Assembly: GCA_050260455.1 (NCBI GenBank)
Contig: JBLNCF010000014.1
Span: forward strand, 1 to 37,147
Origin: Bacillota bacterium
Lineage (GTDB): Bacteria; Patescibacteriota; Minisyncoccia; Phycocordibacterales; Phycocordibacteraceae
DNA: 37,147 nucleotides
Reading direction: 5' to 3'
Numbering within the stretch: the stretch's first letter is position 1; each line of letters begins with the position of its first letter. Of this stretch, positions 26,893 to 30,569 are shown piece by piece. The notes beneath the pieces were generated by a model. The model did no database searches. It saw only the letters and a program-made list of their open reading frames with translations, and was not told where the DNA came from. The position numbers were made by a program, and so were the translations under genes.

Positions 26893-27378
26893 ATGCCGGC
26901 AACCTGGTACGACTGTACTCGTCTGCGCCAGCGTCCTCGTTGGGACGCCGACGCTGGTCTCTGGTATACGGCGCAGACCCTTTCTAAGGATGGGTCTCCG
27001 ACGCCGATGCATCGGCACAAACCGCACGTGCGTGATATCTGCGGTCCGCTCATGGGCACGTCCATTCGCAGGGAGGGAGTAACCGTAGGAGTGAAATATC
27101 CCTGTCTGGACGATCGGCTGCGTATCTACCGCGAAGGTCTTGAGCTCGTCTATGTGTTTCGGGAGTACAAAGATCTGCTCGATCTTGCGGTGTATCGTAG
27201 GCAGGTGACCCGGCGGGGTGGTATTCCGCTCGACCGGCTCTTCTATGAGCTCGCGTGTGCTGCGGAGTTTCTCCCTACGGCCTGGGCCATGCTCGCACAG
27301 CGGATGCCTGATCGGGCTCCGATACGCGACATGTGCCTACGCCATGCAGTGGCTCCTGAAGTCCTGGCGGCGGAGTAA
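26893..27378 (+). CDS. Hypothetical protein (ORFan), 161 aa
   Basis: Purine-rich RBS upstream, TGGTATACT promoter-like motif at about 26840, terminator downstream. Confidence 0.55.
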   Translation: MPATWYDCTRLRQRPRWDADAGLWYTAQTLSKDGSPTPMHRHKPHVRDICGPLMGTSIRREGVTVGVKYPCLDDRLRIYREGLELVYVFREYKDLLDLAVYRRQVTRRGGIPLDRLFYELACAAEFLPTAWAMLAQRMPDRAPIRDMCLRHAVAPEVLAAE

Positions 27379-27388
27379 TGCGTCGGAG

Positions 27389-27421
27389 AGGCTCGGACGA
27401 ATGTCCGGGCCTTTTCCTTTT
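27389..27421 (+). terminator. Intrinsic terminator
   Basis: AGGCTCGGAC-GAAT-GTCCGGGCCT followed by TTTCCTTTT. Confidence 0.7.
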
Positions 27422-27446
27422 ATCCAGCCTGCGGCACACTGGCTTC

Positions 27447-28733
27447 ATGCAACGGTCTGATCTGAAGCGATTCGACCTCCCGGACTGCCCTGGTGTGTAT
27501 CTCTTCACTAAGGGTAGAGGGAGGGACAAGAAGATCCTATACGTGGGGAAGGCGACTTCCCTACGTGACCGAGTACGCTCGTATTTTGATGACGACCTGA
27601 TTGCGACGCGTGGACCGCGTATCGTGGATATGGTGACCCGTGCTGATGGTCTTCTGCACGAGACGACACCGACCGTTCTTGAGGCACTGGTGCGTGAATC
27701 AGCACTTATACGTGAGCACCATCCGCCTGCGAATGCGATGGGCAAGGACGACAAGACATTTCTTTATGCCTGCATTACGGAGGAGGAAATACCCCGAGTA
27801 CTCGCTATTCGCGGGAAGGATATTGATTTCAAGAAATGCGTATCCGGAACGCTGAAGCTCAAGGCTATTCATGGCCCATTTCCGTCTGGGTATCAGCTTA
27901 AAGAAGCACTTCGTCTTATACGACGTATCTTTCCCTTCTATGACACGCCTCGTCCTATCGTTCCGGATGGAAGTCGTGCACGGGTGGATGGAAATAAGCA
28001 TCTGCAGGCAAAAGTGGAGTTCAATCGACAGATTGGCCACTACCCACGCAATATGGATCGGGCCGAATATCTGCGTTCCATTCATAATGTCTCACTCTTC
28101 TTGTCAGGCCAGGTAAAGAAACTGCGTGCTCAATTGACTCGTGATATGCAGAAGGCAGCGAAAGAAGAACGGTTTGAGGAAGCCGGGGTTATAAAGCGTC
28201 AGTTGTTCTCTTTGGATCATGTGCAGGATGTATCGCTCATTAAAGACGAAGCTCGCAGGGAATCCGGTGAGGATATCGGTCCACGTATTGAGGCATACGA
28301 TACGGCACACCTAGGGGGCACGAATGCTATCGGGGTTATGACGGTGGTTGAAAATGGACTGCCGACAAAGGCCGAATATCGCACGTTCCGTATACGAGGG
28401 TATGGGGGCAAGTCACTGAACGACGATATCGCCTCGCTCAAAGAAATACTTTCTCGACGTCTGGGTCACACCGAGTGGCCGCTGCCGCGTGCCTTTGTGG
28501 TGGATGGTGGAAAGACGCACAAGAAGGCAGCGGAAGAACTACTTAAAGAGCTTGGTATCGGTATTCCGGTTGTGGCGGTTGTAAAAGATGATCGTCATCG
28601 CCCAAGAGAAGTGCTGGGTGGCAGGCGCGCAGGCATTACCGATGCCGATGCGGTACTTGCGAACTCCGAAGCGCATCGTTTCTCACTTTCCAAACATCGC
28701 CAGGCCCGCTCGCGTGCACTTAAACAGAAGTGA
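27447..28733 (+). CDS. uvrC: Excinuclease ABC subunit C (shortened)
   Basis: GIY-YIG (PGVYLF...LYVGKA-SLRDRVRSYF), UVR (M..AA.EERFEEA), RNase H-like domain (RIEAYD-AH, VDGG, EAHRF). Start MQRSDL at 27447. Confidence 0.9.
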   Translation: MQRSDLKRFDLPDCPGVYLFTKGRGRDKKILYVGKATSLRDRVRSYFDDDLIATRGPRIVDMVTRADGLLHETTPTVLEALVRESALIREHHPPANAMGKDDKTFLYACITEEEIPRVLAIRGKDIDFKKCVSGTLKLKAIHGPFPSGYQLKEALRLIRRIFPFYDTPRPIVPDGSRARVDGNKHLQAKVEFNRQIGHYPRNMDRAEYLRSIHNVSLFLSGQVKKLRAQLTRDMQKAAKEERFEEAGVIKRQLFSLDHVQDVSLIKDEARRESGEDIGPRIEAYDTAHLGGTNAIGVMTVVENGLPTKAEYRTFRIRGYGGKSLNDDIASLKEILSRRLGHTEWPLPRAFVVDGGKTHKKAAEELLKELGIGIPVVAVVKDDRHRPREVLGGRRAGITDADAVLANSEAHRFSLSKHRQARSRALKQK

Positions 28734-28741
28734 ATAGCATC

Positions 28742-29121
28742 GGTTGCTAAATCCAAGGGCCGTGCTAGCTTTGTTTCTTGTGGGCCTTGGTCCACCGTTC
28801 AAACGGAAGAGGAGGGCGTATGCGCTACCTCGAGTGTGGCGCCGTCAAGGCCGCACGCCGGGAGCACCCGCCTTAGCGAGGCTGCAACCAGAACATCAGG
28901 GAAACGAACAGGAGGGGGAGGCAGAATGGTTACGAAGGATGTACAGGGCTGCCCGGAGCGGGTAAGCATTGTTAACGAGGCTAACGCCTTCGTGCTACAC
29001 ACCACAATCTAGAGACCTTTCGCGGAGGTAATTCTCCGAACAGCTTGCGAGCAGAGCTCGCTTGCGCAATAACACCCGGGCCGGAACAGAGCATCGCTCT
29101 GATTCCGGCCCACTTATTTTT
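28742..29121 (+). ncRNA. Candidate large structured non-coding RNA (unidentified family)
   Basis: About 380-nt intergenic stretch with roughly 11 helices and a 10-bp pseudoknot; G-U pairs and the U-rich terminator tail point to the + strand. See findings. Confidence 0.6.
29078..29121 (+). terminator. Terminator closing the structured RNA
   Basis: GGGCCGGAA-CAGAGC-ATC-GCTCTG-A-TTCCGGCCC followed by ACTTATTTTT. Confidence 0.7.
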
Positions 29122-29158
29122 ATACCGATATGCCACGAGTGCTTGGTATACTCTTCCT

Positions 29159-30133
29159 ATGCGCGGAACTGTTGTGGGGGTGCTGCGAGGAGGTCCATCA
29201 AGCGAGCATACGGTCTCGCTCAAAACAGGGCATGCCATTCTTACGCATCTTCCCCAGGATCGTTACACCGCTCGTGATATCTACATTGATCGGCAAGGAG
29301 TCTGGCACGAGCATGGCGTGGCTACCGCTCCCGAGCGAGTTCTTCCTATGCTCGATGCCGTCATTATTGGTCTCCATGGCGAGTATGGCGAGGACGGTCG
29401 TGTACAACGCCTCCTAGAGCAGTACGGAGTCCCCTATACGGGTGCTGATTCATTTGCTTCAGCAGTTGCTATGCATAAAGTCCTTACCAAAGAGAAGGCA
29501 AAGGAGGTGGGGTTACTTACGCCCAAGTACCACTTTATTGGTCCCGAGGATGATATAGAGACTGCCGCCATTACGATCACGCGCACCTTTCCACAGCCGG
29601 TGGTGGTGAAGCCCGTGGCGCTTGGGTCGTCGGTAGGAGTATCAGTGGTGGGTGGGTACTTGCCCGTACGCAAAGCAATAGAAGCACTCATGCAGGATTC
29701 AATGGGTGTGCTCGTAGAGGAGCTTATTCGCGGCAGGGAAGCCACGGCGGGTATTGTGGAGCATCTCCGGGGCGATGAGTACTACCAGCTCCCGCCGGTA
29801 GAGATCATTCCCCCACCCTCGGCTACGTTTTTTGATAACGAAGTGAAATACAATGGGGAATCACAGGAGATCGTGCCGGGACGTTTCTCAAAACAGGAAA
29901 GCATTGAGCTCATGAATCAGGCCCGCCTCATGCATCAATCACTCGGTCTTCGGCACTATTCCCGCAGCGACTTCATTGTCTCGCCGCGTGGCATCTATTT
30001 CCTTGAGACGAATACCCTTCCGGGCCTCACAAGTGAGTCGCTTCTCCCGAAGTCGCTGGCTGCGGTGGGGGTGAAGTTTCCTGACTTCCTATCGCATCTG
30101 GTTGAGCTTTCACTTGGCCATAAACCTGACTAG
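29159..30133 (+). CDS. ddl: D-alanine--D-alanine ligase
   Basis: GGPSSEH-VSL-TG, HGEYGEDG, PVVVKP...GSSVG, EE-I-GRE, KY, SRSDF and LETNTLPGLT..S..P motifs. Confidence 0.95.
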   Translation: MRGTVVGVLRGGPSSEHTVSLKTGHAILTHLPQDRYTARDIYIDRQGVWHEHGVATAPERVLPMLDAVIIGLHGEYGEDGRVQRLLEQYGVPYTGADSFASAVAMHKVLTKEKAKEVGLLTPKYHFIGPEDDIETAAITITRTFPQPVVVKPVALGSSVGVSVVGGYLPVRKAIEALMQDSMGVLVEELIRGREATAGIVEHLRGDEYYQLPPVEIIPPPSATFFDNEVKYNGESQEIVPGRFSKQESIELMNQARLMHQSLGLRHYSRSDFIVSPRGIYFLETNTLPGLTSESLLPKSLAAVGVKFPDFLSHLVELSLGHKPD

Positions 30134-30496: not shown

Positions 30497-30569
30497 GGGC
30501 CGTTAGCTCAGTTGGTAGAGCACCTCTTTTGCAAAGAGGGGGTCGCAGGTTCGAATCCTGTACGGTCCA
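30497..30569 (+). tRNA. tRNA-Ala(TGC), CCA not encoded
   Basis: Cloverleaf with GGGCCGT/ACGGTCC acceptor stem (G3:U70), anticodon TGC at 30530-30532 and GGTTCGAATCC T-arm. Confidence 0.96.

Follow-up and report, generated by a model that had tools for sequence, protein, structure and literature searches.

The stretch of DNA analysed here (the window, 37,147 nt) is contig C14 of G000, a genome of 690,381 bases in 18 contigs that is 98% complete and belongs to the candidate phyla radiation (CPR, Patescibacteria). On its plus strand uvrC, with its stop codon at 28731-28733, is followed by ddl, whose ATG lies at 29159. The two genes are separated by a gap of 425 nt (28734-29158; ~56% G+C), most of which had been described in a sequence-only reading as a free-standing, highly structured RNA of about 380 nt, ribozyme-like and possibly of a new class. 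The features of the locus are:

27378-28733, plus strand: uvrC (451 aa, short form; Pfam UvrC RNase H endonuclease domain, 1.5e-28, and UVR motif)
28742-28889, plus strand: 'Domain 1', a GC-rich run of hairpins specific to G000 (folding z = -1.01; no alignable counterpart in related units)
28744-28771, plus strand: putative weak promoter, read by eye (-35 TTGCTA at 28744-49, 16-nt spacer, TGn-extended -10 TGCTAGCTT at 28763-71)
28916-28940, plus strand: conserved core (GGGAGG, CAGA spacer, AUG, one free codon, ACG AAG GAU)
28926-29012, plus strand: mini-ORF of 28 codons (MVTKDVQGCPERVSIVNEANAFVLHTTI), with GGGAGG 4 nt before its ATG; the enclosing 58-aa ORF has no Pfam match
28927-29004, plus strand: local hairpin over the start codon (UGGU 28927-30/ACCA 29001-04; ACGAAGG 28932-38/CCUUCGU 28987-93)
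29078-29121, plus strand: intrinsic terminator (15-bp stem at 29078-29111, one bulged A, 3-nt loop, U-rich tract ACUUAUUUUUAU)
29144-29152, plus strand: ddl promoter, an extended -10 element TGGTATACT that ends 6 nt before the ATG
29159-30133, plus strand: ddl (D-Ala-D-Ala ligase, 324 aa; Pfam Dala_Dala_lig_C, 4.8e-35, and Dala_Dala_lig_N, 3.7e-22)

As earlier noted, the gap holds no credible long ORF: the frames of 73, 58, 68 and 85 aa that it contains gave no Pfam match. The long ORFs also have no paralogue in the genome, and no translated similarity to other gaps held up. One tblastx match on contig C10 (E = 7.7e-4) proved to be an arginine-rich junk frame with an internal stop, and a minus-strand gene opposite the core was dismissed, as the frames there are not consistently open. 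With regard to the flanking genes, UvrC (451 aa) matches only the UVR and RNase H-like domains in Pfam, with no GIY-YIG or helix-hairpin-helix match. A 161-aa ORF without Pfam match abuts the start of uvrC with a 1-nt overlap at 27378 (window 26893-28733). Downstream of ddl lies tRNA-Ala(UGC) (30497-30569), as it does in several congeners.

The base pairs that had been named for the gap are accurate. Eight helices were scored by script and all eight were fully complementary, namely the closing helix (6/6 pairs), H1 (6/6), H2 (4/4), H4 (7/7), H5 (4/4), H6 (3/3), the Domain 2 stem (7/7) and the 10-bp 'pseudoknot' with its three G-U pairs. Four more named hairpins, H3 (28809-31), GCCCG/CGGGU and those at 29023-38 and 29047-61, were viewed only in the printed sequence or in folds. 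Folding beyond chance was not confirmed. The region 28737-29125 folds at -151.1 kcal/mol on the plus strand (z = -2.94; minus strand z = -1.69), and in a part-by-part test with 60 dinucleotide shuffles per stretch the whole of 28742-29121 scored z = -3.03. When the terminator was removed (28742-29070) the score fell to -0.56, so that the signal is that of the 15-bp terminator hairpin at 29078-29111. Domain 1 alone and 28890-29070 scored -1.01 and -1.57, respectively, and the inferred RNA body of G000 -0.64. Without its terminator the stretch thus folds no better than its shuffles, and the remaining hairpins are what chance is expected to produce in a sequence of ~56% G+C.

The absence of a match to known RNA families was borne out. 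At the gathering thresholds of Rfam 15 the whole window yielded only five tRNAs; the region 28650-29200, searched at E <= 10, gave two chance-level matches to archaeal snoRNAs (E = 1.1 and 6), and fifteen related loci searched at E <= 1 gave only tRNAs and sub-threshold matches. ARAGORN detected no tmRNA in the window. RNase P RNA and tmRNA are encoded elsewhere in the genome (C12:122888-123213, 138 bits, and C12:11300-11698, 86 bits, respectively). The large and housekeeping RNAs of Rfam (RNase P, tmRNA, SRP, 6S and the OLE/GOLLD/ROOL type) resemble the stretch in size range and in their location between genes; however, no model reaches E = 1 here, and structure is not conserved in the gap. 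The element is present in just 7 of 222 congeners and therefore cannot be an essential RNA. A CsrA/RsmA-binding RNA or CsrA decoy was rejected as well, since the genome has no CsrA gene; its best PF02599 match (19.3 bits against a cut-off of 27 bits) sits within a 445-aa frame. As a side observation, SRP RNA (RF00169 and RF01854; small and large models) and 6S RNA (RF00013) were detected nowhere in the genome at E <= 0.001, the assembly being 98% complete.

Homologues of the insert were sought by blastn with 389 nt in 61 genomes (36 congeners, 24 other genomes of the order and G000), and G000 alone was recovered. Ddl was detected in 94 of the 101 genus genomes sampled, and the region upstream of ddl was read in 91 loci: 78 carried uvrC and ddl on one strand, five cut-outs missed ddl and eight lacked uvrC. 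The two genes are neighbours across the genus, with a gap of 2-1131 nt in the 78 loci (2-66 nt in 41, 76-198 nt in 9 and 215-1131 nt in 28). In the sister genome G025 (SH-aLRT 96 in a quick UvrC tree) the gap is 30 nt and holds no insert. Where inserts are present they are mostly unrelated to each other, comprising protein genes in some genomes and non-coding-looking stretches in others. The uvrC-ddl junction is a hot spot of gene turnover. Among its occupants are ndk (in G067 and the L087 genome), small membrane proteins in other congeners, and a protein of 126-133 aa with four conserved cysteines, zinc-ribbon-like by eye, in G089 (L017), G072 (L071) and G083 (L105). We considered whether the G000 insert is a relic of the gene for this four-cysteine protein and rejected it: tblastn of the three proteins against the gaps gave nothing below E = 0.1, and a VTKD...RVS..NE likeness seen by eye is not significant. 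In an all-against-all comparison of the gaps (blastn and tblastx) G000 was linked to other genomes only via a core of 25-32 nt (~28914-28940). Neither Domain 1 nor the pseudoknot nor the 3' hairpins can be aligned to any part of the six related units, and hence covariation cannot support them. The variable loops of the related units could not be aligned by MAFFT.

The 25-nt core at 28916-28940 is the only conserved part of the 425-nt gap, and it had not been mentioned in the sequence-only reading. Exact matches to the pattern GGGAGGCAGAATG-N6-A-N-GGAT were found in 5 of 222 genus genomes, one per genome (G000, G022, G124, G073 and G227); with two mismatches the pattern gave four matches against six for a reversed-pattern control. 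A relaxed pattern (GGAGG, 4 nt, RTG, codons 4-6) was found exactly in six of the 222 genomes, with no control matches. It brings in the diverged copies of G065 and G220 and misses G000, in which codon 6 differs. In total the core is carried by 7 of 222 genomes, every copy lies between uvrC and ddl, and in G000 the core is single-copy. A search of 401 genomes of the order recovered nothing beyond G000 and a single two-mismatch match, the latter equal to the control count. The exact-pattern scan of all species representatives returned three known congeners and three chance matches at the starts of longer ORFs, and that of metagenome contigs three chance matches with neither uvrC nor ddl nearby (L050 is almost ORF-free).

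Within the core, GGGAGGCAGAAUG is invariant over 13 nt in five genomes. This exceeds what a Shine-Dalgarno (SD) sequence requires and hints at recognition at the RNA level. The core is matched exactly in five genomes although the Ddl proteins of the other carriers are only 61-70% identical to that of G000. In the quick UvrC tree, which is weakly supported and does not include G220 (found later), six carriers fall into one branch of 31 rows (SH-aLRT 88), with none among the other 41 rows. Within the tree carriers are interspersed with non-carriers, implying at least five changes, and this distribution fits an old element that was lost many times. Neither the sister genome nor 215 of the 222 congeners have the element, which is thus dispensable.

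Downstream of the SD-like GGAGG, seven of the nine units found in the carrier genomes contain an ORF of six codons with the pattern M-x-(T/N/S)-(K/M/E)-D-(Y/N)-stop. The frames read:

G022: MGTKDY-stop
G124: MDTMDY-stop
G073, unit B: MTNKDN-stop
G220, unit B: MANKDN-stop
G065: MVNKDN-stop, with a GUG start
G073 and G220, units A: MTSEDY-stop
G227: MTTKDYS-stop (7 codons)
G000 (window): 28-codon frame starting MVTKDV

The G000 copy is atypical, as the stop after codon 6 is absent and the frame reads on to 28 codons. Codon 2 is free to vary, as is the spacer in the diverged copies of G065 and G220. Several of the changes in codons 3 and 6 and in the start and stop codons are of the synonymous type (ACG/ACA, AAC/AAU, UAC/UAU, AAU/AAC, AUG/GUG and UAG/UAA; only ~11 informative substitutions, counted by eye), which would favour translation. 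In G000, GGAGG is enriched upstream of 442 crude gene starts that have no nearby -10 box (27 occurrences at -20 to -3 against 10 at -60 to -43), and reading the core as an SD sequence is therefore reasonable. The mini-ORF is probably translated. In G073 (L058) and G220 (L125) two six-codon mini-ORF units lie in tandem, and a promoter-like box and a terminator accompany each of them. A second small frame is present in unit B (MWRIRLRRS-stop in G073); part of this frame, AUCCGAUUGCGA, recurs in G102.

The pairing of the start region (AUG plus four codons against the next 70 nt) beats shuffles in G000 (p = 0.016) and in G073 unit A (p = 0.008) and is not significant in the other seven units; with two of nine units at p < 0.05 the combined p is 0.03-0.06. 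A conserved hairpin over the start codon was thus rejected as not beyond chance across the nine units, and the Domain 2 stem is real in the G000 sequence without being a conserved feature. One apparent compensatory change in G124 is anecdotal. Folding of the RNA bodies, which were delimited by eye, gave z = -2.05 for G022, -2.39 for G227, -3.48 for G220 unit B, -3.85 for G073 unit B and -4.25 for G065, next to +1.38 for G124, where the slice cuts a hairpin. A 5' domain of ~75 nt is common to G073 unit B, G220 unit B and G065 (L058, L125 and L064). It consists of an ACGCC/GGCGU helix, a hairpin with a GNRA cap and, around a CGACAU-N-AGAA loop, a helix in which compensatory changes are seen. G227 has part of this domain and G000 cannot be aligned to it. 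The G073/G220/G065 clade may possess a genuinely structured RNA, to which the G000 copy has lost its likeness.

A transcript of the insert could be driven by the TGn-extended -10 box at 28763-71, a candidate promoter that has three of six -10 consensus bases and was not picked up by the consensus scan, in which the plus strand had no promoter at all. Similar elements (TTGnnn/TAnnnT or TGn-TAnnnT) lie behind the uvrC stop codon in related units, where a terminator ahead of the ddl promoter recurs as well. If this promoter is used, transcription would start near 28778 and the closing helix and the 5' arms of H1 and of the pseudoknot would be excluded from the RNA. The stretch could equally be the 3' UTR of uvrC instead of a unit of its own. 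At the other end, termination within the gap, as had been proposed, is plausible: the 15-bp stem at 29078-29111 followed by ACUUAUUUUUAU has the make-up of a Rho-independent terminator. A simple scan missed it, probably owing to the bulged A. The stem words GGCCGGA/TCCGGCC are common to four of six related units.

The earlier caution that the stretch is not obviously a ddl leader found support. At every locus inspected across the genus (28 of 28) a -10 box belonging to ddl ends 6-8 nt before the ATG; it is a TAnnnT element (mostly TATACT, often with TGn in front) that is present with or without an insert. The position of this box implies a leaderless ddl mRNA. Over the whole genome, a TAnnnT box falls between -16 and -6 at 207 of 649 crude gene starts and peaks sharply at -12; leaderless initiation seems to be common in the G000 lineage. 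A literature search on leaderless starts, small or noncoding RNAs and the anti-Shine-Dalgarno sequence in Saccharibacteria, Patescibacteria and CPR returned nothing relevant.

Dual-function sRNAs and leader peptides are the known systems closest to such an arrangement. Known dual-function sRNAs, small RNAs with small ORFs that derive from intergenic regions or 3' UTRs, combine peptides of tens of residues with base-pairing seeds. They share with the uvrC-ddl unit a promoter-like element and terminator of their own, a length of a few hundred nt, a lineage-restricted occurrence and fast evolution outside a short core. Unlike them, the uvrC-ddl unit has a conserved ORF of only six codons and no known seed or target. 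Among leader peptides, those of cat and cmlA offer a parallel. From a leader-peptide attenuator the locus has the SD sequence and the start codon, but neither a regulated gene in the same transcript nor a conserved alternative pairing. The most similar layout is that of MsrDL (MYLIFM), the hexapeptide leader of msrD in macrolide resistance. Most of its residues reportedly matter, it stalls with erythromycin at the stop codon, and the stalled ribosome blocks an intrinsic terminator and so controls msrD in the same transcript (Nat Commun 2023, PMC10314930). In both MsrDL and the mini-ORF units a strong ribosome-binding site precedes an ORF of six codons, and a Rho-independent terminator comes after it; the mini-ORF differs in its unrelated sequence, in the lack of a regulated gene in the transcript and in its variable distance to the terminator. 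Likewise, toiL is a short sensory upstream ORF of E. coli topAI that lies upstream of the ribosome-binding site of its target and whose translation status is read out via RNA structure (eLife 2025, PMC12121999). The mini-ORF is similarly short; the uvrC-ddl insert differs in that no such target and no conserved alternative pairing were found at it. The likeness to both systems is architectural only.

Taking the evidence together, we tentatively favour a reading in which the uvrC-ddl gap of G000 holds a fast-evolving, lineage-restricted insert that forms a separate unit and in which selection acts on a ribosome-binding site and a mini-ORF, the latter probably translated; this is a possible rather than an established interpretation. 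The insert would most likely be a small transcription unit of ~340 nt that runs from the TGn-extended -10 box at 28763-71 to the terminator at 29078-29121. Its sole selected element would be the translation-initiation region, that is GGGAGG, the 4-nt spacer, the AUG and the mini-ORF. The conserved codons (Lys/Met/Glu, Asp as GAU, Tyr/Asn and stop) suggest a leader-peptide-like, cis-acting sensor of the ribosome instead of a peptide product. The anatomy of the insert, the pattern of its conservation and the absence of folding beyond chance are direct observations; its transcription, its translation and any regulatory role are what we infer from them. It is tempting to speculate further that the six-codon ORF acts, in an ultra-small symbiont, as a new kind of stand-alone sensor of its nascent peptide or codons, in which a pause at GAU plus NAY or at the stop codon responds to a host molecule or tRNA modification and sets the fate of the small RNA. 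We regard this extension as a rather long shot. Potentially, such pausing might also affect transcription into the leaderless ddl promoter. The NAY codons are decoded by tRNAs that carry queuosine, and the window includes a tgt gene. If the mini-ORF is indeed a sensor, it would be among the very few regulatory elements proposed for CPR bacteria.

The large ribozyme-like RNA that was originally proposed is the least credible of the explanations considered and very improbable. Its eight checked helices are present, no Rfam family matches and the region as a whole reaches z = -2.9 to -3.0, and to this extent both the observation and parts of its interpretation (no known family, no obvious ddl leader, a plausible terminator) were sound. 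However, the z-score is due to the terminator alone and the rest folds at shuffle level; blastn found no homologue in the 60 other genomes searched, Domain 1 and the pseudoknot cannot be aligned to anything that would allow covariation, the sister genome lacks the insert, and a start near 28778 would remove three of the proposed 5' arms. As a corrective result, this shows how a hairpin-rich, ORF-poor gap in a small G+C-rich genome resembled a new large RNA. What remains is a core kept letter-perfect in five genomes, always at one turnover hot spot. Only slightly better placed, and still very unlikely in our view, is a ddl leader or attenuator in which translation of the mini-ORF sets terminator read-through into ddl. 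The succession of a hexapeptide ORF, an intrinsic terminator and a gene behind it does reproduce the layout of MsrDL (PMC10314930). In addition, the stop codon in G124 lies 13 nt from the terminator stem (counted from the sequence), and in G073 unit A pairing is possible between the start region and the 5' arm of the terminator (p = 0.008). This pairing is not kept in the near-copy G220 unit A (p = 0.43), the distance from ORF to terminator varies from 13 to ~230 nt (counted from the printed sequences), and ddl has a promoter in leaderless position at all 28 loci, whether or not an insert is present. A read-through transcript would moreover hold the ddl AUG internally with no SD sequence before it.

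Two further explanations are unlikely but carry more weight than either of these, and we rate them alike. The core might bind a protein or another RNA within a non-coding small RNA, its likeness to an SD sequence and an ORF being incidental. Such a role is in line with the thirteen invariant bases, spacer included, in five genomes, with the use of GAU and never GAC in nine of nine units, with an ORF length that is not kept in two of nine units and with the recurrence of CAGAA beyond the core in five of six RNAs. It also agrees with the RNAs of G073, G220 and G065, which beat shuffles (z -3.5 to -4.3) and have a 5' domain with compensatory changes. Yet G065 and G220 keep the peptide pattern while the spacer and even the start codon change, pairing around the core is not conserved, the genome has no CsrA gene (19.3 bits against 27), and a search for complementarity partners, which was not systematic, found none. 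Alternatively, the G000 insert may be without function and in decay, left over from the small-RNA unit or from an older gene, so that only the terminator and the ddl promoter still matter. The turnover at the junction (gaps of 2-1131 nt with unrelated cargo), the 30-nt gap of the sister genome, the missing sixth-codon stop and a body z of -0.64, where five of six relatives reach -2.05 to -4.25 (G124, with its cut hairpin, +1.38), are all in line with such a remnant. Against it stands the letter-perfect 25-nt core of G000 despite the 61-70% Ddl identity to the other carriers, and for an older gene of the four-cysteine type the tblastn comparison with the gaps gave no match better than E = 0.1.

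A canonical 16S tail has a CCUCC core. In G000 the 16S gene (L130; G000:C15, 26841-28300, minus strand) reads GGAACAUAUCCAAUCGGAAC after helix 45, and the tail is identical in G000, G227 and G124 (L130, L131 and L132). The idea that the core is the complement of this unusual tail was discarded, as tail-complementary words are not enriched before gene starts. Mimicry of a conserved 16S segment was likewise rejected: a 12-nt 16S motif is absent from the genome. An 11-nt word of three family members, absent from the core of G000 itself, occurs once in the genome. A CUCCU/CCUCCU word lies ~200 nt past the 16S tail, after partly conserved sequence, and there may be an insertion near the 16S 3' end. 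Together with the widespread leaderless starts, this unusual 3' end may help in annotating CPR genomes.
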